Virus record (IMG/VR): IMGVR_UViG_3300028048_003161
Strand: one strand, 5' to 3'
From: a virus
Taxonomy: Duplodnaviria; Caudoviricetes
DNA length: 64,000 nucleotides
Both the position numbers and the translations under genes were made by a program. This document shows, one piece after another, positions 23,733 through 41,952 of this stretch (within the stretch, counting starts at the first letter, position 1; every line of letters begins with the position of its first letter). The notes beneath the pieces were generated by a model. That model was given only the letters and a program-made list of their open reading frames with translations. It did not search any database and was not told the origin of the DNA.

Positions 23733-24656
23733 ATGGAAATGGCATTTGGTTTTTTCAAAGAAAAAGTTAGGCAGCTTGAAAAAATGGATCCTAACGACAC
23801 TTCAGGAGTGAATTTAGCAAAGGAAACATCTGATAAAGCAGTTGAGATTATTAAAGAGCTGTCAGGTAGAGATATAGACACAAAGGTAAAAGTAATAGAC
23901 AACTTGATTGTGTTTACTAATGCAGCTGGTGGTGCTGGAGCATCTACAATAGCTACGAATGTAGCATATGAAGCTATTCAAAAGGGATTGAAAGTTGTGC
24001 TTTTAGACTTGAATTTACTTTGTCCTGTACAGCATACATATTTAGGAGTTGAGCAGCAAATGACAAAACCTGACTTGGTGGGATATTTACTTGGTCAGAA
24101 CTCATTGAGTGATAGCATTGATACTTCTAATAAGATCAATTTGATTTTTGCAAACAACAGAACAATCAATGATTTAATCAATTGTAATGATGCAATTGCA
24201 ATTGAGAATTACAAAGACATGTTAACAAAGTTGAGGCAGTTTTATGATCTTGTAATTGTTGATTGTCCTATGCGAATTGATGATATGCTCTGCAATACAA
24301 CATTGTATTACGCAGATGCAATCTACATGGTTTGGGATGAGGGTGTTGGTTCTGTAATCAACACAGAGAAATTAAGAAGGAACATGGCAGCAACTGGTAT
24401 TGACAGTTTCACAAAAATGAGAGTCATTTTGAATAAGAGAACATCAATTCATTTTTCTGATTATCCATTGACAAAAATGAATATTGAACTTATGGGAGTA
24501 TTACCTTTCAGTGTTGATATCATTGATAACTCCTTAAGAGAGAGAATCTTCTGTGAAAAGGGTTCAAGTAGCAATGAGGAATCAAATGAGTTTGCACGTA
24601 AAATGATAGGTTTATCAAATAAGATACTTAGTATTGCAGGATATACAGGAAAGTAA
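23733..24656 (+). CDS. TadZ/CpaE-like MinD/ParA-family protein
   Basis: Deviant Walker A AGGAGAST, VVLLDL, YDLVIVDCP; precedes TadA. Confidence 0.8.
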   Translation: MEMAFGFFKEKVRQLEKMDPNDTSGVNLAKETSDKAVEIIKELSGRDIDTKVKVIDNLIVFTNAAGGAGASTIATNVAYEAIQKGLKVVLLDLNLLCPVQHTYLGVEQQMTKPDLVGYLLGQNSLSDSIDTSNKINLIFANNRTINDLINCNDAIAIENYKDMLTKLRQFYDLVIVDCPMRIDDMLCNTTLYYADAIYMVWDEGVGSVINTEKLRRNMAATGIDSFTKMRVILNKRTSIHFSDYPLTKMNIELMGVLPFSVDIIDNSLRERIFCEKGSSSNEESNEFARKMIGLSNKILSIAGYTGK

Positions 24657-32357: not shown

Positions 32358-32397
32358 AAATAGACCTAGTATTCAGAAATGGGTACTAGGTCTATTT
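32358..32397 (+). terminator. Intrinsic terminator ending the tad region
   Basis: aaatagacctagtattc...gggtactaggtctattt. Confidence 0.75.
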
Positions 32398-32556
32398 GCA
32401 TGTAAATATAATAAGTAGTTATTTATTAAGTTGTTTGAAGTGACACATGAACATGTAATTGAATAAATTAAAAATGTGTAATTTATTATTGCGTTGTTTC
32501 AGACATCTAAATATAATAAATGTAAAAAATTATTTATTTAATGGAGGTAAATTAAA

Positions 32557-33909
32557 ATGAGTTTTGTAGCAGCTGATTTAGGTGCAAGCAGTACACGATA
32601 CACTAGTGACAGTGGAAAAATCGATGTGTTGCCTAATAACATGAAAACACTGCCTGATATGAATGTATCACTTATCATTCCTGACTCTGGAGACATTGAG
32701 AGTTGTTTAGAGGCTCAGATTACAAGAGATGGGCAGGATGCAATGGGATTCTTCCCTACAAATGTACTCATGGGAATCATGGCAGAGAAACATCGTGGAA
32801 TTGACGAAAGACCTTCAGTCAATACACACAAGCATAAGCAGAAAATCAACTATGTTTCAGCTATTATGGCATGTGCAGTAAGTAAACTCAAGCATCCTGA
32901 GTTAGCTGAGCATGTAGACCTTTACTTAGCTACACCTCCTATTGAGGTTCATGCAGCTAAGGAGGCTTTTGCACAGGTACTTTGTGGAACTTACACAGTT
33001 TATTTTCCAAAGTATAACAATGGAGTAAGCGTGACATTTACTGTTGATTCAGTAAAATGTTATGCAGAGTCATATATGGCTTCAGCAGCTTTCTTCTTCA
33101 ATATGAATGGTACACCTAAGGAGGAGACAAGACAGTACTTAAGTGGTACAGTGCTTCACCTTGATATTGGTGCATCTACATCAGATCTGTCCATTACAAA
33201 GAATGGTAAGTTCCTTGATAAGTCAGGACAGACATATCGTATTGGAGGTAATGTGGCACGTGACAACCTGATTGACCAGATCTGTCAGAAATTTGCTATT
33301 GATTTACCATTAGCAGATGCTGAAAAGGTCATGGCAGAGGGTAGGATGCAACAGGGTATGGGATTTGTAGACGTAAGTGACCTTGTAATGGTTGCTAAGA
33401 GAGAATTAGCTCAGCAGTTAAATGAGTATCTTGATACATACTTCAAGAGGATTCAGATCCCTATTCAGATGGTAAATGCCATTGTTGTTTCTGGTGGTGG
33501 ATCAATGCAGAGTCAGTATGCAACACCTGAAGGAGAGATGGTTAAGACATCTGAACCTTTAAGTTACTTTGTAACTCAGGAGTTACAGACATGGTCACCT
33601 GGAACAGCAGTAATTCCTTTTGGAGACAATGCTAGGTTTGCAAATGTCACAGGTTTGTTTATTCGCGCAAAGATTGATGAAATCAAGCGTAAACAGCAGG
33701 CAGCAGTTGCATCTCAGCCTGTAACACCTACAGTTCAAAGCGTTGCTCAGGGCATTGGACAGACACAGCAGGTACAGCAGGTAGTAAATAATGGGGCAGT
33801 TGCAGGAGCAGGTCAGACAGTAGGTCAGACAACACCAACATATACTGGAGCACCTGGACAGGTAATGCAGGATAGACAGCCTGGACAGGAAGGACAGATT
33901 ACACAGTAA
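32557..33909 (+). CDS. Actin-like ATPase of the ParM/StbA (Alp) family
   Basis: Phosphate-1 ADLGASSTR, connect AES, phosphate-2 LDIGASTSD, adenosine VSGGGS; Gln-rich C-tail. Confidence 0.85.
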   Translation: MSFVAADLGASSTRYTSDSGKIDVLPNNMKTLPDMNVSLIIPDSGDIESCLEAQITRDGQDAMGFFPTNVLMGIMAEKHRGIDERPSVNTHKHKQKINYVSAIMACAVSKLKHPELAEHVDLYLATPPIEVHAAKEAFAQVLCGTYTVYFPKYNNGVSVTFTVDSVKCYAESYMASAAFFFNMNGTPKEETRQYLSGTVLHLDIGASTSDLSITKNGKFLDKSGQTYRIGGNVARDNLIDQICQKFAIDLPLADAEKVMAEGRMQQGMGFVDVSDLVMVAKRELAQQLNEYLDTYFKRIQIPIQMVNAIVVSGGGSMQSQYATPEGEMVKTSEPLSYFVTQELQTWSPGTAVIPFGDNARFANVTGLFIRAKIDEIKRKQQAAVASQPVTPTVQSVAQGIGQTQQVQQVVNNGAVAGAGQTVGQTTPTYTGAPGQVMQDRQPGQEGQITQ

Positions 33910-33922
33910 AATGTAAATTAGT

Positions 33923-33962
33923 ACAGAGAACCACTAAGGCAGACATGGTGGTTCTCTGTTTA
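33923..33962 (+). terminator. Hairpin between the actin gene and the coiled-coil gene
   Basis: acagagaaccac...gtggttctctgttt. Confidence 0.65.
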
Positions 33963-33981
33963 TGTCAGAGAGGGAAAGAAA

Positions 33982-36900
33982 ATGACTAATGAATCAATTA
34001 GTATAATCATTAAGGTTGGAAAAAAATCTAATATGAAATTTAGTCATAGCAAGGCTTATAGAGCACTAATACCTGAAGATTTGGAGATATTGCATAGAAA
34101 TCATCCTGATTGTCATTTGGCAATTATTGAGAACATTAAGGAAGATGAAGAGGATGCAGTAAGAAAGTTTATTCAGTCGTTTGAGAGTGAAAGTGATGAC
34201 AATAAAGTTTTGTTCTATATACCTGATGAAGATGATTTGGCAACATTAGGTTTAGCAGATGAACTTAATTTTGATATATACATGACACTTGAAGATATCT
34301 ATTTTGCTATGAAAGACTTAGGATACAGTTTGGATGTAGCAGCAACACTGGATAGTAGAAGAGAACACTTCAAGGAAATGTCAAAAACAGATGATTTGGA
34401 GGGTGTCACAGATATCTTTGGTGGCATTGGAGAGGGTCAGGACAGCATTGATATAGATGTGGACAATGAGACAGAAAATCAACATGAGGACTTTGGTGAT
34501 TCAGACACTTCAGAGAAGCAAACTAGCAAGGTTAGTTTAGCAAAAGAGACATCAGAAGAAAATGAGACAGACTTATTTGATGGTATGGGTTCATTTGAGG
34601 ATGGACTTGATACAGCTGAAGAAAAAGAAGATAACACACAGGAAACAAAGGATGCGCAGGAAACAAAGAGTAGTACTTCAGAATTAAGTGAAGTAAACAG
34701 TGAAGAAATTGATAAGATTAGAACAGAATTAAGAGATACTAAGTATGATTATGGAGTAGCAGTTAAGGATGTTCAAGAGGCTAACAAAAGAATTGAGGAC
34801 CTTGAGAGTGTAATTAAGGCACTTAAGGATGAAAAGAAAGACATTGTAGATAGATTTAATGCAATTAAGGACAATGGAGAAGTATTTGATGATGCAGACT
34901 ACAGTGAGTTAAAGAGAAAATTACAGCAGAGTGAAAGCAGTATTGAAGAATTAACTGCTGAATTAAATAAAGAGAAGTCAGAGGTTGAAAAACTTACTAC
35001 AGACCTTAATGATAAGGTTGAACAGCTAAACGAGTTAAATAGTAAGGTTAAATCTGGTGAAATACATGCAGAAATAGTTGCAGACTATGAGAAGAAATTA
35101 AGTGAACTTTCAAATAAATACAAAGATACATTAGAGAAATTTGAGAATGAGCAGGGTAAGGTAAGTGAGATTAGTGATAGTTCAAGTAAAGAACTTGAGG
35201 TAATGAGTTTAGACCTTACAAATGTAAAAAATGAGCGTGACAGGTTTAAGGGAGACATTGATAGACTTAACAAACAGCTAACGAACAGTGAAGAAAAAGT
35301 AGAAAGCATTACAAAAGAAAGAGATGATCTTAAGAAAAAGGTTGAGTCACTTGAGAAAGAGAAGAGTGACGTAACAAAAGAAAGAGATGATCTTAAAGTT
35401 GAATGTGATGGACTTAAGAGTGAGAGAGATACACTCAAGATAAATGCAGGAGACCTTGAGACAGCTAAGGAAAACTTAACAGAAAGAGTGGAGTCACTTG
35501 AGAAAGAAAAGAGTGACCTTGAGAAAAAGAAGTCAGACATTGAGGGAAAACAAGCAGGTTTAAGAAGCGAGAAAGAAAAGCTTATAAATGAAAAGAGAGA
35601 ACTTGCTAATGATAAGATCAGACTTACAAATGAAAAAATTACACTTGAGGATGAGATAAAAGAACTTAAGGATAGACAGAAGAGCCTTGAAGCAGAGAAG
35701 AAAGACCTTGAGAATAAGAAAAACAGCCTTGCAGAAAAAGTAAATCAACTTGAGAGTTTGGAGGGTACCTCTGAAAAGAATGAAGAGTCACTCAATGAGA
35801 AAATTGAAACCTTGGAAAAAGAAAAGAGTGACCTTGAAGAAAAGATTAAGACATTTGAAAGTGAAAAGGAACAGTTAAATAAAAAAGTAAGTACAGCTGA
35901 AGATAAAGCAGATGCAGCTGAATTTGCTAAATTTGAGGTTGAGGAAACAGCAACAGCACTTAAAAAGAGTGTTGAGACACTTGACAAAAAATTAAATGAC
36001 AAGCAGAGTGAAATTGGACAGCTGAAAGCAACAATAACTAATTTGAACTTACAGTTAGATGAGTGTAGGGCAGACTTAAGTTTAGCAACTGAAGCAAACA
36101 GTAAGATTCTGGAGCAGCAGGGAGATGCAGATAGCCAGTATAAAAGTGAGATTGACAGTCTTAAACAGCAGATCAGTGGTTTAGAGACTAAACTTAAATT
36201 AACAAATGAGCAGTTGGAACAGAAGGAACAGCAGTACAGCGTGCTTGTTGCACAGCAGGCAGATAAATCAGCAGGAGCAAATGCATTAGCTAGCACAAAT
36301 CAGACACTGGAAATTGTCAATAAAACATTGTCAGAACAGTTAAGCGTAGCAAATAAAGAAATAAATGCACTTAAAAACAGTAAGACTAAACTCACAAGTG
36401 AAGTTAAGACTTATAGGGATAGATGTAATCAGTTAGATAGTGCATTGAAAAATACAGTTAAGGCACTTGGGAGTGGGGCAAGCAACACAGAGAAAAAAGA
36501 GCAGACAAGTGATAGTGGTAGCAGTAGCATGGGAGGTCAATATCTGACAGTTAAACCTATCAACTATACAGGGTCAGCTAAGATCATACCAGTATTTGGT
36601 TGTGGAGGTACAGGTATAACAACAGCAGCTGTGTCATTGGCAAGTAAAATCTGCTTAACATCAAATGTACTATACATTGATATGGACATTACACAAGCAT
36701 CAGCTGATGCATGGTTTAGTCAGACACCTTTATGTGGTGGTCTCAGTGGTCTTGGTTTAATGGACATTGAGTGTACAGGACTGGGTATCTTCTATGAAAA
36801 AGGGTTTAACATTTTCAATAATAATTTGGACAAGATTATTAAGAATGTTGAACATACAAAAGGTGGAGGAACAGACTATTTAAGTGGATTGATACATAGA

Positions 36901-37332
36901 GTGGATGATGAAAGAATTGCGAATGCAGACTATACGTCTTTGTTTAATAGACTTGGAGAGAAATATACATACATTGTTATTGACCTTGGTAGAGTGGGAA
37001 ATAGCAGAGTCAATGATAGTTTGATCAAAGCAATTTTTGATATATCAGCTACAAATATGGCAGTTGTACCTCAGAATTATTTTAGTATACGTAATTTTAT
37101 TCTTAAAGTCAGTGAGGCTAAATTAGATATGCGTAAGTTAAAGTTGATAATCAATATGTGTACAGCGACTGCACTTGACAGGAGAACTAAACAGGCATTA
37201 ACAAGTAAATCAATTTCAAAGTATGCCATGATTTTGTTAGATCAGAACATGGTGTGTATAAAAGATACATTCATACATAACAAATTGAACAGAGATAAAT
37301 TTGCAGCTTTTGTAAATTCAGACCTGTTTTAG
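33982..37332 (+). CDS. Giant coiled-coil protein with C-terminal degenerate MinD/ParA-like domain
   Basis: ~600 aa heptad E/K/L region; C-terminal IIPVFGCGGTGITT, VLYIDMD, YTYIVIDLG. Confidence 0.75.
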   Translation: MTNESISIIIKVGKKSNMKFSHSKAYRALIPEDLEILHRNHPDCHLAIIENIKEDEEDAVRKFIQSFESESDDNKVLFYIPDEDDLATLGLADELNFDIYMTLEDIYFAMKDLGYSLDVAATLDSRREHFKEMSKTDDLEGVTDIFGGIGEGQDSIDIDVDNETENQHEDFGDSDTSEKQTSKVSLAKETSEENETDLFDGMGSFEDGLDTAEEKEDNTQETKDAQETKSSTSELSEVNSEEIDKIRTELRDTKYDYGVAVKDVQEANKRIEDLESVIKALKDEKKDIVDRFNAIKDNGEVFDDADYSELKRKLQQSESSIEELTAELNKEKSEVEKLTTDLNDKVEQLNELNSKVKSGEIHAEIVADYEKKLSELSNKYKDTLEKFENEQGKVSEISDSSSKELEVMSLDLTNVKNERDRFKGDIDRLNKQLTNSEEKVESITKERDDLKKKVESLEKEKSDVTKERDDLKVECDGLKSERDTLKINAGDLETAKENLTERVESLEKEKSDLEKKKSDIEGKQAGLRSEKEKLINEKRELANDKIRLTNEKITLEDEIKELKDRQKSLEAEKKDLENKKNSLAEKVNQLESLEGTSEKNEESLNEKIETLEKEKSDLEEKIKTFESEKEQLNKKVSTAEDKADAAEFAKFEVEETATALKKSVETLDKKLNDKQSEIGQLKATITNLNLQLDECRADLSLATEANSKILEQQGDADSQYKSEIDSLKQQISGLETKLKLTNEQLEQKEQQYSVLVAQQADKSAGANALASTNQTLEIVNKTLSEQLSVANKEINALKNSKTKLTSEVKTYRDRCNQLDSALKNTVKALGSGASNTEKKEQTSDSGSSSMGGQYLTVKPINYTGSAKIIPVFGCGGTGITTAAVSLASKICLTSNVLYIDMDITQASADAWFSQTPLCGGLSGLGLMDIECTGLGIFYEKGFNIFNNNLDKIIKNVEHTKGGGTDYLSGLIHRVDDERIANADYTSLFNRLGEKYTYIVIDLGRVGNSRVNDSLIKAIFDISATNMAVVPQNYFSIRNFILKVSEAKLDMRKLKLIINMCTATALDRRTKQALTSKSISKYAMILLDQNMVCIKDTFIHNKLNRDKFAAFVNSDLF

Positions 37333-37355
37333 TTTAGGAAGGAGATAACAGAGAA

Positions 37356-38192
37356 ATGGGTACACGTAGTATTAGATTTGGTTCACAGCTGACATTTGAT
37401 GAGGACAAAGAGAAAGATATTATTGACACTATTGATACATTGAATTCATCTCATAAAATGGGTCAGTTCATGTCTAATTTGATTAGACTTGCATTTGATA
37501 ATCCTGAAATACTTAGGGTTGGTGCAGATGGTTTAGAGAAGCAGGCAATGCTTCAGCAGGTGGAAAGCAGCGGTATGTCAGTTAACAGACAGCGGTTTAT
37601 GTCTGAAGTTACATCAGAGATTTCTGATATGAAAAAGAAAGTTGATGAGGTGTACAATATGGTGTTTAAGTTGTATACATTGGCTTTAATGAATAAGCAT
37701 TTGGAAATTGAAAATAAATCAGACAATTCATTAAGGGCAACATTTGTATTAGAAAGACAGCTTAGACAATTACAAGATTCACTTGGTGTAAATATAAGTG
37801 ATGCAGTGTATGAGTCTGATAAGGTCGCTGACGTTCATGTAAGAGCAGAGGATTGTTTAGAGTATATCATTGAGACATACGATGGAATCATTGATGAAAT
37901 GAAACAGGCAATTGCAGTAGGACAGCAGCCACAGGTAGTTGTTCAGCAGGCAGTAGGAAATACAGGAGTTGCTGGAAACAATATGGTAGTTGGCAGTACA
38001 GAGGCAATTAGATCAGTAGAAACTGTAGGAAATACAGGGGCAGTTGAGACACAAGCAGTTGTGAATGATGCAAGCACAGCAAATACAAGTACAAGCACAG
38101 CAGTTCAAACCGAAACACCACCTGAAGAGGAAATAATTGACTTTGGGGATACAGATGATATCTTGGATGCAATGAACTTCTTTGATGATTAA
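37356..38192 (+). CDS. Hypothetical protein, candidate ParR-like adaptor
   Basis: N-terminal strand plus two short helices (RHH-like by pattern only), coiled coil, low-complexity acidic tail; third gene after the actin homolog. Confidence 0.45.
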   Translation: MGTRSIRFGSQLTFDEDKEKDIIDTIDTLNSSHKMGQFMSNLIRLAFDNPEILRVGADGLEKQAMLQQVESSGMSVNRQRFMSEVTSEISDMKKKVDEVYNMVFKLYTLALMNKHLEIENKSDNSLRATFVLERQLRQLQDSLGVNISDAVYESDKVADVHVRAEDCLEYIIETYDGIIDEMKQAIAVGQQPQVVVQQAVGNTGVAGNNMVVGSTEAIRSVETVGNTGAVETQAVVNDASTANTSTSTAVQTETPPEEEIIDFGDTDDILDAMNFFDD

Positions 38193-38195
38193 AGG

Positions 38196-39410
38196 ATGAG
38201 ACATGGAGGATTTAGGGAAATGACATTTGATAAGTTATTAGGTTTATTGGAGGAAAATGAATTACATGAGTTGGTTGACTTTATGAAGTCAATGATACGT
38301 CTTGATGAGTATTCAGAGACACCTTATCTGATAAATCAGACATTGAAATTATTGTCAGATGACAGTCCTTTGTATAACCTTGTCACTGATGGAAATAAAA
38401 GAGCACTATGTATAATGTTACAGAGATACTATGAGAATTGTTTCGACTACTCACTTGGAGATGATGAGATGGAGGACAAGTTGAAATATGGAAAGATCAT
38501 GGTATATAAGATTTGTGCAGCAAATGGTTTGAGATATGCAACTGAAAAAGAGGTTGAACTTGGTGTCAAGGGTTTACAAGAAGAGCCTATTTATCCCGCT
38601 ACACAGGAAACATATGAAATGCTTTGTTTATTACAGTGGACTTTAACAGGTTCTGCTTATTATTTCAGACAGGCTGGCTACAAATTAGAGTATGGAGATA
38701 ATAGAGAAGTTAAGAATACATTTTATGAAATGGTTCAAATGTGTGCAGAAAAACTAAACAACTTGTTTGAGTGGATTAAGGACTCTGGTAGAGTGGAAAA
38801 AGCACTTCGTATCATGGCTAAAATGAAAAGGAACAAGGGATATAAATATGCTAGCTATGAAAAAGATGAAGTGACAGAGGATATTCCAATCAAACAAATT
38901 GTTTATAATATTTGCAAGACATTTCCTAGAGGGAGTGAGAATCCTGAATACAGGAGGGCTTTAGCGATAGCACTTAATAACTACAATAATAAAAAGAGAA
39001 TGACCGTTATGGAAGTTTCTTTTCTACGTACTGTTTATGAGAAATTTGCAGTAGATAGGACAGCACATAAGGAGATGGCAGAGAAAGAGGCACAGGCTCA
39101 AGTAGATGTGCAGTTGAAAGAGGAATGTCAGGCACTGTTAGATGCTAGAAATACACGAGATATTGATTCTCAACACTTTTGTTATAAGATAATTGACACA
39201 TTAAAAAGAAATGGTTACACTAGATGTTCTGCAAAACAACGAAAAATTATTGAGTCGGCCTTGCAAGACATTGGATATGACAAGGATAAAAAGAAGACTA
39301 ACATTGTGGAACCTAAGGTTGAAATCTTATCTGATGATATGATAGACGCTTCACTTGGTACATTGGCAAGTGCAGTGAACATGGGATTGTTTGATGACTT
39401 GGATGAATAA
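38196..39410 (+). CDS. Hypothetical protein
   Basis: 404 aa ORF, codirectional. Confidence 0.7.
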   Translation: MRHGGFREMTFDKLLGLLEENELHELVDFMKSMIRLDEYSETPYLINQTLKLLSDDSPLYNLVTDGNKRALCIMLQRYYENCFDYSLGDDEMEDKLKYGKIMVYKICAANGLRYATEKEVELGVKGLQEEPIYPATQETYEMLCLLQWTLTGSAYYFRQAGYKLEYGDNREVKNTFYEMVQMCAEKLNNLFEWIKDSGRVEKALRIMAKMKRNKGYKYASYEKDEVTEDIPIKQIVYNICKTFPRGSENPEYRRALAIALNNYNNKKRMTVMEVSFLRTVYEKFAVDRTAHKEMAEKEAQAQVDVQLKEECQALLDARNTRDIDSQHFCYKIIDTLKRNGYTRCSAKQRKIIESALQDIGYDKDKKKTNIVEPKVEILSDDMIDASLGTLASAVNMGLFDDLDE

Positions 39411-39461
39411 CATTTTGATATATTAAGTATAAGATTTTTGAGAGATTGAGAGGTAAGTCTA

Positions 39462-40097
39462 ATGAGCAGTCTTTGTATAAGTTCAGACTTCTTTGATTTC
39501 TACGACTACTTGAACAATAAGTCTTCTCCGATAAGATATGACAGACAATTAAGTAGATGTAGACAACGAGGAGTGGCATTGAAGTTTCTAAGGGCTCTTG
39601 GTATTAAGACAATAGACATTCAACCTGTAAGTCAGTACATAGAAAGTGATGGACCTTTGGTGGTTTATACTGATATACGGGGTCATAGTGGCAATGGCAA
39701 GAGAATAGAGACAGTTGCAGAAGCAAGGTTTTTGCATGAGAATTGTATAGCAAGCAAGTTATTAACTTTGGATGAACTTCTAACAATGAAGTTTATACAG
39801 ATAGGTAAAAGAAGATACACTTTATACTTTAAGAAAAGTAAAGAAGATCATCCATTAAATGTTGGTACACTGGTGGATATTAAGAGAGCACCTGATGAAT
39901 ACAATAGAGTCATAGGATTGCCTATATTTTCAATAGATTACATTTCTCATAATAATGATGTTTTAGCAACTGACTTTAATGAGGTAGAGTGTCTTGAGAG
40001 ATATAAAATGGATAACTATATAAGTGCAGAAGAGACAGTAACTGAAATTATTGATGCACTTATAGCTTATAATAAAGTGAATGTTAAGGAGAATTAA
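39462..40097 (+). CDS. Hypothetical protein, possibly degenerate ATP-grasp fold
   Basis: IFSIDYI......LATDFN resembles the ATP-grasp C-terminal motif. Confidence 0.5.
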   Translation: MSSLCISSDFFDFYDYLNNKSSPIRYDRQLSRCRQRGVALKFLRALGIKTIDIQPVSQYIESDGPLVVYTDIRGHSGNGKRIETVAEARFLHENCIASKLLTLDELLTMKFIQIGKRRYTLYFKKSKEDHPLNVGTLVDIKRAPDEYNRVIGLPIFSIDYISHNNDVLATDFNEVECLERYKMDNYISAEETVTEIIDALIAYNKVNVKEN

Positions 40098-40101
40098 AAG
40101 G

Positions 40102-41001
40102 ATGGGTAATACATTAGAAACAAAGGGAGCTTATACAGAGGAGCATACAGCATTAGCATTAGCAAAGTACATTTCTGGCATTGATACAGTAAAAACTCGC
40201 ATAGGGGAGTTTGGAAGTAGTCATTATGACAGTGGCGTGAAGGACCTGGTTGTATCAGGACATCAGATCTTTGACATGGGAGAAAATCCTGTTTACGTTT
40301 ACACCTCAATGGATACAGTGATTGATGCACGAGTTAAGTTTGGTAGGGTTAATGGAAAGAGTACTACACAGCTTATCAATTTATTGGTTAAGCAAGGAGT
40401 AATTACTGGCGAGACAGGTGATGAAATCATTGAGAAAATCAAGGACATCAATACAAATAAGCAGGTCATTGTTCCTTTTAAACCTCATACAGACTGTAGA
40501 GTTACTTATGAGATAGGAAATACAGTCAAGAAAGATTGTGGTGCAACTATTAAGTTTGTTAAGTGGTTTAGTAACAAAGAAACTATGCAGTTAGATTGTA
40601 AGCTGGGTTTTGAACTTAAGGAGACAGCAACAGAAAAAACAATTACACATGATATTACAGACTATATGCATGGATTCAAAGCAAATGCAGTAATGTTGCA
40701 TGCAAATGACAGTAAGAAAAATGATGAGATGATTAAGGTTACTAATCAATGTATCATTGAACCTGTCGAGGTTACAGATGGAAGAACAACAGCAGCCATT
40801 GATGGAACTTTCATGTACTTAAAAACTGGAGATGCAATGGAGATTGTAGGGCATTGGAATCCTAACAACGAATTTGTATTTACAGAGAAAAAGAGTACAA
40901 AGACAGTGAAGTTCTTGAAAGACAATATCAACATTATTGCAGTACATAGGAAGTATATTGCACCTTACATGTTGTATGAAGCTAATCACTTTGAAATTTA
41001 G
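40102..41001 (+). CDS. Hypothetical protein
   Basis: Long ORF; start taken at ATG 40102. Confidence 0.65.
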   Translation: MGNTLETKGAYTEEHTALALAKYISGIDTVKTRIGEFGSSHYDSGVKDLVVSGHQIFDMGENPVYVYTSMDTVIDARVKFGRVNGKSTTQLINLLVKQGVITGETGDEIIEKIKDINTNKQVIVPFKPHTDCRVTYEIGNTVKKDCGATIKFVKWFSNKETMQLDCKLGFELKETATEKTITHDITDYMHGFKANAVMLHANDSKKNDEMIKVTNQCIIEPVEVTDGRTTAAIDGTFMYLKTGDAMEIVGHWNPNNEFVFTEKKSTKTVKFLKDNINIIAVHRKYIAPYMLYEANHFEI

Positions 41002-41034
41002 TTAGACAGGTTATAAATTTGGTTGGAGGATACT

Positions 41035-41952
41035 ATGAAAATACATTTGATTTTTGATTTTATGCATATCTATTACAAGTACTTTTTCAGAAAGGGTTTA
41101 AAGAGACTTTCTGCTCCGATTGATTGGAATGGTACTGTAATTGAGAAAGACACTACTTTGATTTTTCATCCTTTGAGTGATATTGAATCACAGAGAAGAA
41201 GTTTTGAGTCACAAGGCAATGATGTGACAGTATCAGTTTGTTTTGATAGTAAGTCACACAGAAATGATAGTGAGGACTCTGATTATAAGTCAGGTAGAGA
41301 ACACAGACTTTCTGAAGAGGATATTAAAAACATTGATTATATTAAAGAGAGATTGGCGATTGCTGGACATAATACATACAAGTTAGATGGATTTGAGGCA
41401 GATGATTTAGTAAATTACATTTGTAATAAATACAAAGATCAGTATGATTATACAGTCATCTTTACAAATGATAAAGACTTGATTGTGAATGTGTGTGACA
41501 ATGTGATTGTTATGAGATACAAGAGCGTTGATGGTGGTTATAATCCTGTAAGACGTGACAATTATGAGTCATACTTGGAGCCAGAGTTCAAGGTGTTCAT
41601 TCCTTACAATGCATTAGGTTTATACCTTGCAACAGTGGGAGATAAGTCAGATCACATTAAGGGCATTAACAAGTTTGGACCTGTAGCGTTTAAGAAATTG
41701 ATTACAAAAGTTGCAGCAAAGAATGACGTTAACTGGTCAGAATGCGGAGATTATCACAAGGCATTTGAAGTAGCTCAAATGTGCAAGGAGTTTTTAACTG
41801 ATGAACAGTATCAGGATATGATGGACAGCTTTGCATTAGTTGCTAACCTTAAAGTAGAGGATGGGTGGTTAGAGGCACCTGAAAGAAAATCTACAAGGGA
41901 AATGAGAGAAGATGCTTATGGTGGATTAAGGATGATGACTTTAATTCCTTAA
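41035..41952 (+). CDS. Stand-alone 5'-3' exonuclease / flap endonuclease (Pol I N-terminal domain family)
   Basis: CFD, YKSGR, FEADD, TNDKDL, GDKSDHIKGINKFGP (H3TH). Confidence 0.9.
   Translation: MKIHLIFDFMHIYYKYFFRKGLKRLSAPIDWNGTVIEKDTTLIFHPLSDIESQRRSFESQGNDVTVSVCFDSKSHRNDSEDSDYKSGREHRLSEEDIKNIDYIKERLAIAGHNTYKLDGFEADDLVNYICNKYKDQYDYTVIFTNDKDLIVNVCDNVIVMRYKSVDGGYNPVRRDNYESYLEPEFKVFIPYNALGLYLATVGDKSDHIKGINKFGPVAFKKLITKVAAKNDVNWSECGDYHKAFEVAQMCKEFLTDEQYQDMMDSFALVANLKVEDGWLEAPERKSTREMREDAYGGLRMMTLIP

Follow-up and report, generated by a model that had tools for sequence, protein, structure and literature searches.

Actin-based partition systems comprise, to our knowledge, two proteins. In ParMRC of plasmid R1 the gene for an actin-fold ATPase comes first and is followed by that for ParR, an adaptor of approximately 117 amino acids (aa), and an iteron array, parC, lies upstream. 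Alp7A/Alp7R of pLS20 and BtParM/ParR of pBMB67, both from plasmids of Bacillota, are likewise encoded by two genes; their adaptors are small, and neither a coiled-coil nor a ParA-fold protein accompanies them. Here we describe a locus of related type in a 64,000-nucleotide stretch of DNA ("the window"), virus record IMGVR_UViG_3300028048_003161 of IMG/VR (Duplodnaviria; Caudoviricetes). Three consecutive genes, all on the + strand, encode an actin-like ATPase (ALP, P0001; 32557-33909, 450 aa), a very long coiled-coil protein (P0002; 33982-37332, 1116 aa) and a putative adaptor (P0003; 37356-38192, 278 aa). These frames had been delimited in the same way by an earlier reading of the DNA which used no database searches (the sequence-only reading), and several of its claims are evaluated below.

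We think it somewhat probable that this locus, on a giant, uncultured, one-strand-coding, plasmid-like element of gut Bacillota, encodes a type II-like, actin-based apparatus for DNA segregation which includes a conserved third subunit. Four results were computed for the locus itself: membership of ALP in the actin family, a ParA/MinD fold in P0002 with family-wide loss of the Walker A lysines, conservation of gene order, and a controlled in silico docking of the P0003 tail on the actin.

Comparison with described systems

As in ParMRC, the locus begins with the gene of an actin-fold ATPase, lies on an extrachromosomal replicon, and encodes an adaptor, the C-terminal helix of which would, by prediction, occupy the cleft between two connecting helices. 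It departs from ParMRC in that a gene for a 1116-aa coiled-coil pseudo-ParA stands between those of actin and adaptor; in that the adaptor is far larger, with an extensive helical core and a disordered linker of ~70 aa; and in that no parC-type iteron array was seen upstream, a hairpin lies 3' of the actin gene, and the operon continues into four more genes. As neither an iteron centromere beside the genes nor a two-gene operon was recovered, and both are defining features of ParMRC, we do not file the locus as a plain member of that type. Alp7A and BtParM are the closest solved relatives of ALP by profile, and they differ from the present locus as described above.

Third coiled-coil proteins which modulate or anchor cytomotive partition systems are exemplified by TubY (TubZRY, type III) and KfrA (IncP/IncU) (PMC7762940, PMC7783346). 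Their motor is a different one (tubulin or ParA), they are much shorter than P0002 and have no ParA/MinD-fold domain, and homology to P0002 was not detected. Our literature search returned no report of a third coiled-coil protein in actin partition, nor any of a fusion between a coiled coil and a dead ParA domain.

The role of TadZ is one of localisation rather than motor activity. TadZ/CpaE and other ParA/MinD proteins that are lysine-less or act as landmarks share with P0002 a ParA/MinD fold in which the Walker A is atypical; an N-terminal domain of receiver-like type may be a further common trait. However, these two domains are directly joined in TadZ, whereas in P0002 they lie ~700 aa apart, separated by an acidic linker and the coiled coil; the slot beside tadA is occupied by a different gene (23733-24656), and profile similarity between the proteins is poor. 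Relative to the ParA/MinD deviant Walker A ATPases, P0002 has the fold, the DxD motif and the Walker B Asp, but not the defining Walker A lysines.

The actin-like ATPase

P0001 (32557..33909, +) was assigned to the actin family by Pfam, PHROG, alignment and a family profile. It matches Pfam ALP_N at 27.5 bits, in excess of the cut-off, MreB-like_C at 25.7 bits, and PHROG 691, "partition protein", at 1.8e-16. The phosphate-1 (D7-G9), phosphate-2 (D203-T208) and adenosine (G313-G315) motifs, which the sequence-only reading had called intact, are invariant in 13 relatives, as are the connecting helices. The conserved core spans residues 1-380. Residues 380-450 form a Q/V/G-rich tail; the Gln-rich tail noted earlier is thus present in the window's copy but is not a property of the family, many members of which are without it.

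Searched against the PDB, the family profile recovers BtParM (4.4e-12), Alp7A (1.6e-9) and Dh-cParM1 (2.8e-4), and also finds MreB, CorM and MamK. PilM was matched neither by the family profile in the PDB nor by the window's copy in Pfam; a precomputed PilM_2 match is carried by many ALP relatives. With BtParM and Alp7A nearest by profile, a PHROG annotation of partition protein and no PilM match by that profile, the assignment to the plasmid-segregation kind of actin was upheld. The closest annotated relatives, both at ~25% identity, are ParM/StbA of 349-350-kb Bacillus thuringiensis plasmids and, from the 497-kb Bacillus phage G, gp506, which is annotated as a "partition protein". A word-indexed search placed the family in 237 clusters, on contigs of up to 720 kb, while a single-sequence search of IMG/VR returned no relatives.

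A coiled-coil protein with a lysine-less ParA/MinD domain

The second gene had been read as encoding a globular N-terminal domain, a coiled coil of ~600 aa and a MinD/ParA-like C-terminal domain, and the coil and the ParA/MinD fold are borne out by heptad analysis, AlphaFold2 (AF2) and Foldseek. The C-terminal domain (residues 866-1116; 36577..37329, +), also evident from alignments, was modelled with 8 relatives at a pLDDT of 78 and a pTM of 0.82. Its best PDB matches by Foldseek are MinD, McdA, ParA2, FlhG, FleN, PF-32, BcsQ and Soj (E ~1e-7, probability 1.0, TM 0.56-0.66).

We took as the deviant Walker A standard a signature Lys together with a P-loop Lys (KGGxGK[ST]). The corresponding segment of P0002, GCGGTGITT (residues 873-881; 36598-36624), was reported earlier to be without lysine, and indeed both deviant lysines are absent from all 14 aligned relatives. 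At the P-loop Lys position, 132 family representatives have Ile (72), Val (43), Thr (15) or Lys (2). The Walker A glycines and two threonines, the DxD motif (D41 and D43 of the domain) and the Walker B Asp (D142) are invariant in the alignment. An exhaustive profile search recovered 225 clusters (50% identity) at E ≤1e-30, in which the domain is always C-terminal, in proteins of ~620-1330 aa (median 867). Loss of the lysines across the family points to a discrete, old family rather than a recent pseudogene. With both lysines lost but the invariant glycines, threonines and aspartates named above retained, the domain is most likely a nucleotide-binding or purely structural docking module and not a motor.

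The TadZ-like gene further upstream (23733-24656) had been credited with a similarly degenerate P-loop. It reads AAGGAGAST and again lacks both lysines, as is usual for TadZ proteins. Comparison of its product with the P0002 C-terminal domain gave an hhalign probability of 6.8%, and thus no specific closeness.

The conserved N-terminal alpha/beta domain of P0002 (residues ~1-125; 33982..34356, +), delimited by alignment, has no family match in Pfam or NCBIfam. Leads from the Atlas are weak and CheY-like, the N-terminal domain of Rv3660c among them, with scores of 0.79-0.81. An acidic, disordered linker follows (residues 126-240; 34357..34701, +), with 31% D+E and D-phi-F-G motifs (TDIFGG, DLFDG). 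Such motifs occur in 37 of the 128 family representatives, where shuffled sequences would give 5.2.

The coiled coil (~600 aa; 34702..36516, +) is supported by heptad power and by Pfam coiled-coil matches. The coil covers residues ~240-845; heptad (3.5-residue) periodicity is strong over approximately residues 225-840, at 3-18x background, and the gene contains 21-nt (7-aa) tandem repeats at 35581-35755 (TRF period 21). A short G/S-rich hinge joins the coil to the C-terminal domain. Among proteins whose C-terminal domains are ≥94% identical, total length ranges from 897 to 1166 aa and the coil differs by up to 239 aa. These differences are indels in coil and linker, of which a part (7, 49, 77 aa) are divisible by seven and others are not. 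Rod length is, in other words, a strain-level polymorphism.

Two more proteins of P0002-like design were observed in a 268-kb relative of the element (contig positions 76436-79891). The first, an 853-aa open frame of which 751-759 aa are readable, has a long acidic linker of FGGDMY/DIFG repeats and a C-terminal ParA/MinD-like domain which reads GCGGCGTST, with no lysine. The gene after it encodes a similar N-terminal domain, a coiled coil and an alpha/beta C-terminal domain. Such elements seem repeatedly to carry paralogous "landmark" proteins of the pseudo-ParA kind.

A putative adaptor and its predicted docking on actin

The sequence-only reading proposed P0003 as an adaptor with a start resembling a ribbon-helix-helix (RHH) domain. 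The N-terminus (37356..37505, +) is a candidate for such a domain: AF2 predicts a strand (residues 3-15) and two helices (20-31 and 35-48) at a pLDDT of 71-81, and the segment is conserved in 23 sequences. The predicted strand-helix-helix is thus compatible with the proposal, but searches of Pfam, NCBIfam and PDB sequences gave no match to an RHH family. A fold search with the model was dominated by the helical core and returned only generic helical bundles (Z ≤8.2, residues 67-179). With no sequence match and an uninformative fold search, we treat RHH as a plausible reading and not as a result. Alignment and AF2 further delimit a conserved helical core (residues ~64-188) and a variable, disordered linker (189-257), together at 37506..38126 (+). 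No membrane segment was found in the protein.

The evidence for an adaptor role comes from the other end of P0003. Its C-terminus (38127..38189, +) carries a conserved acidic motif, DE-(I/V)-(I/V)-D-F-G-x-A-D...L..FF in the 23 sequences of the family and EE-I-I-D-F-G-D-x-D...L..FF as delimited in the window, with D262, F263 and F275 nearly invariant, and is predicted to dock on ALP. Three runs of complex prediction with ALP and the P0003 tail gave ipSAE values of 0.74, 0.75 and 0.74, while the best of 3 controls gave 0.02; among solved complexes 58 of 80 attain the ipSAE mark applied, and among mismatched pairs 2 of 110. The runs share ≥66% of their contacts, with a partner pLDDT of 52-53. Predicted contacts join ALP residues 177-187 and 368-377 (with 19-21 and 214-219) to P0003 residues 260-277. 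The ALP contact segments are the two connecting helices, which in actin and ParM form a hydrophobic cleft. ParR binds in this cleft, as do many actin-binding proteins. Conserved interface residues (F180, F181, G185, G366, L367, I369 and A371 of ALP; D262, F263 and F275 of P0003) rank among the most conserved positions in both proteins. In silico, then, P0003 behaves like a ParR-type adaptor, in keeping with the earlier proposal.

Gene order and regulatory signals

The order of the ALP, P0002 and P0003 genes is kept in every related locus long enough to contain them, down to 25-30% identity, so that the synteny which the earlier reading suggested checking was recovered. Upstream in the window lies a Tad-like set: the TadZ-like ParA/MinD protein (23733-24656), a T2SSE ATPase (24678), two polytopic membrane proteins and a pilin-like protein of 95 aa. 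In the relatives, genes for the TadZ-like protein, the T2SSE ATPase, two membrane proteins and the pilin-like protein are followed by three genes, then by ALP, P0002 and P0003, then by proteins of ~390, ~210 and ~305 aa and, finally, by a FEN 5'-3' exonuclease.

A perfect 14-bp inverted repeat (32358..32397, +), found by repeat scan and terminator-like in sequence, ends the upstream Tad-like operon, and would isolate the ALP gene from the Tad genes transcriptionally. The AT-rich promoter region of ALP follows (~160 bp; 32398..32556, +). It contains TTGCGT-17-TATAAT at ~32491-32519, read by eye, and no iteron array. We also observed in this region a 16-nt repeat, CATsTAAATATAATAA, in two copies (32399-32414 and 32504-32519) 105 bp apart; one relative has an analogous two-copy repeat, 119-124 bp apart. 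This repeat could be an operator.

A strong hairpin with a T-run, an attenuator or terminator, separates the ALP and P0002 genes (33923..33959, +), as had been noted. It has a 14-bp stem followed by TTTAT, and the 72-nt spacer folds at -22.7 kcal/mol. Of 12 relatives, 10 have a strong hairpin at the same place, 3' of the ALP gene, and the sequences that form it are unrelated. Conservation of position without that of sequence argues for a conserved attenuator.

Beyond P0003, intergenic gaps and colinearity indicate that conserved genes for proteins of 404, 211 and 306 aa, and then FEN, are co-operonic (38196..41952, +). From P0002 through FEN, the gaps are of 3-51 nt or the genes overlap. FEN (41023-41952) matches its Pfam family at 3.1e-16. 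The three preceding proteins (38196-41001) gave no family match, a PDB sequence search of two of them yielded nothing useful, and the Atlas held no usable match for the 404-aa protein; they may belong to the same machine as the trio. The trio is therefore not a self-contained three-gene module, P0002 and P0003 sharing a tight operon with three further genes and FEN.

A 136-kb Bacillus subtilis plasmid, on which an ALP gene lies near that of a T2SS-type ATPase, was considered as support for an association between ALPs and pili. It was rejected, as its ATPase and the intervening genes are unlike those of the window.

A parallel on pXO16-type plasmids

A comparable arrangement is found on a 349-kb B. 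thuringiensis plasmid (NZ_CP045024.1), where genes for ParM/StbA, a 583-aa protein and a 269-aa protein lie in a row (242491-246365). ALP matches this ParM/StbA at 26% identity (phmmer 1.5e-17). A DHH protein gene precedes that of ParM/StbA, and a FEN-like gene occurs further on. The same match was found in the HD-789 plasmid NC_018516.1 (349,599 bp), which we infer to be pBTHD789-1, a 350-kb plasmid equated with pXO16 (PMC6199540). pXO16 is conjugative, its genes share a single orientation, and the function of almost all of them is unknown (PMC6199540); its one-strand coding and many paralogues have been called "phage-like" (PMC6199540).

In the 583-aa plasmid protein an N-terminal domain is followed by an acidic stretch containing GDLFEEF, then by a coiled coil and, at the C-terminus, by an alpha/beta domain. 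The N-terminus of the 269-aa protein aligns weakly with that of P0003, and its C-terminus is acidic. Gene order, domain layout and the setting in a giant replicon coding on one strand are thus shared with the window, whereas the plasmid's coiled coil is much shorter, its C-terminal domain has no remnant of a P-loop, and Tad genes are missing. Searches of the pXO16-type plasmid for a TadA homologue, for CbiA/ParA and for tubulin were all negative.

We observed that the plasmid gene at 260417-261604 of NZ_CP045024.1, annotated as "potassium transporter TrkH", matches the window's FEN (phmmer 5.3e-11). The annotation looks wrong.

The element and its relatives

The window has a GC content of 31-39% with strong G>C skew, and nearly all of its long open reading frames are on the + strand. 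A blastn search of the locus against deposited phage and plasmid collections gave no nucleotide match. Twenty related loci were collected from metagenomes of the human gut, a bioreactor and other sources, on contigs of 221-483 kb; Logan and ENA supplied additional ones. A human-gut contig of 464,735 bp encodes a P0002 homologue with a C-terminal domain 96% identical to that of the window.

Among 185,579 species genomes, the family of this domain has a single match and is essentially invisible in genome collections. The match is a 4.4-kb contig (JAGALE010000276.1) binned with a Lachnospiraceae metagenome-assembled genome from water deer caecum, which offers a weak hint that Lachnospiraceae host the element. 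In IMG/VR one 268-kb record, listed as a viral contig, carries the domain. This relative has no match to the capsid family PF05065 and no true terminase, and neither a tubulin nor a ParA-ParB pair was found in it. Its lone weak terminase match is an FtsK/SpoIIIE-like protein (767-808 aa; contig positions 82887-86123), a better fit to a Gram-positive conjugative coupling protein than to a phage terminase. Among the window's own proteins we found no virion genes.

Two known groups of elements were considered and set aside. Hodor megaplasmids have a GC content of 44.6-47.1% and encode Rep_3, ParA, ParB, ParM/StbA and sortases (PMC12934698). Identity with them was rejected on GC, as well as on the missing ParA-ParB pair of the 268-kb relative. 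Inocles fit poorly by their description, being oral and smaller, with an average GC of 32% or 24%.

Proposed mechanism

If the locus is a segregation apparatus, ALP would polymerise with ATP into filaments, as do members of its family. P0003 would be a ParR-like adaptor, its strand-helix-helix binding repeated DNA sites as a dimer and its helical core providing the dimer contacts. The acidic C-terminal helix would then enter the cleft between the ALP connecting helices, as in the controlled in silico complex, and couple DNA to the filament ends. P0002 would form a long rod of ~90 nm, anchoring or spacing the actin-adaptor-DNA complex relative to the nucleoid, the membrane or the pole. The hairpin 3' of the ALP gene may set an expression ratio in which the filament subunit is made in excess over tether and adaptor. 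Of these steps, filament formation by ALP, the binding of P0003 to DNA, the action of P0002 as a tether or spacer and the hairpin-set ratio are all inferred.

Several observations weigh against this scheme. No iteron-type centromere lies beside the genes in the window and no repeat array is shared among 9 relatives, although a centromere at a distance is possible. Colinearity spans the whole 20-kb block from Tad to FEN, and synteny alone does not, therefore, tie the trio together. Moreover, the operon that P0002 and P0003 share with FEN and three further genes could imply a role in replication or repair. An RHH fold in P0003 is plausible from predicted secondary structure only. The complex score may, in part, reflect the model's memory of solved ParM-ParR complexes; as such complexes exist, the docking result shows likeness as much as binding. 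The plasmid parallel is also restricted in scope: hhalign of the 583-aa protein against P0002 (E 0.21) and of the 269-aa protein against P0003 (E 0.018) gave low probabilities, so that homology is not established and these two genes constitute an architectural parallel only. The statistically sound plasmid matches, by sequence, are ALP, DHH and FEN only. Finally, polymerisation, DNA binding and an effect on element stability are, for this locus, predictions from sequence and models.

Alternative explanations

The neighbourhood suggests another function, in which the three proteins would not segregate DNA but build a cytoskeletal scaffold for the Tad-like pilus or secretion machine encoded next to them. 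P0002 would then be a stretched TadZ-like landmark, its N-terminal domain receiver-like and its ParA/MinD domain atypical, and actin and adaptor would position or power the envelope apparatus. Tad-like genes directly precede ALP in all gut and bioreactor relatives, the TadZ-like protein and the P0002 C-terminal domain are both without Walker lysines, and the CheY-like leads for the P0002 N-terminal domain and the PilM_2 matches of ALP relatives are of the kind such a scaffold might show, the former at low scores only. However, a terminator-like hairpin and a separate promoter region stand between the Tad genes and ALP, the locus already has a TadZ-like gene of its own, and to that protein the P0002 C-terminal domain is not specifically close. 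The ALP profile matches ParM, Alp7A, MreB and MamK but not PilM, and P0003, unlike PilN, has no membrane segment. In addition, the pXO16-type plasmid carries an analogous trio of ALP, coiled-coil and adaptor-like genes and no TadA homologue; the link to the Tad pilus, which the sequence-only reading had entertained, is thus not needed, and we judge the scaffold unlikely.

To a replication or repair role we assign a similarly low probability. Here the trio, the three further proteins, FEN and an upstream RecJ-like DHH protein would form an organising centre of a very large, low-copy replicon, much as AlpC/AlpA of prophage CGP3 supports viral DNA replication; the actin-like protein is reported to be required for this replication to be efficient (PMC4446434). 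The tight operon running from P0002 to FEN is in keeping with such a centre, as is the order of DHH, ALP and FEN, which recurs on the pXO16-type plasmid. On the other hand, we recognised neither a replication initiator nor a primase or polymerase among the genes of the operon, and the proposal overlaps with segregation instead of excluding it. It is very improbable, lastly, that the element is a huge phage whose actin system, like PhuZ or AlpC, would position phage DNA or sites of assembly in the infected cell. That one relative is listed as a viral contig, that ALP is related to the partition protein of phage G, and that one-strand coding with many paralogues earned pXO16 the description "phage-like" would suit a phage. 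Yet that same 268-kb relative offers neither capsid family nor real terminase, its weak terminase match being FtsK/SpoIIIE-like, the window contributes no virion genes, and pXO16 itself is a conjugative plasmid. We retain DNA segregation as the favoured function of the locus.

Implications

A bolder form of the segregation proposal is one that we advance tentatively and to which we would give somewhat less than an even chance. The locus would be an undescribed three-subunit actin segregation machine, in which a ~90-nm rod of variable length with a catalytically dead ParA/MinD end, a fossil type I ATPase turned docking module, is the obligatory partner of a ParM-ParR-like pair. It would represent the common maintenance system of a large and almost entirely uncultured clade of one-strand-coding giant plasmid-like elements of anaerobic Bacillota.

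The third protein described here is conserved across at least 225 sequence clusters, and joins elements of type I (the ParA fold) and type II (actin) partition. If true, the proposal would supply a clear case of a motor ATPase turned structural module. The look-alike locus of pXO16 offers a cultivable, conjugative model, while the family itself resides on abundant, little-characterised giant elements of the human gut and anaerobic digesters. Should P0002 act as a tether or spacer, it could explain how replicons of such great size (220-480 kb), presumably of low copy number, are placed within the cell.

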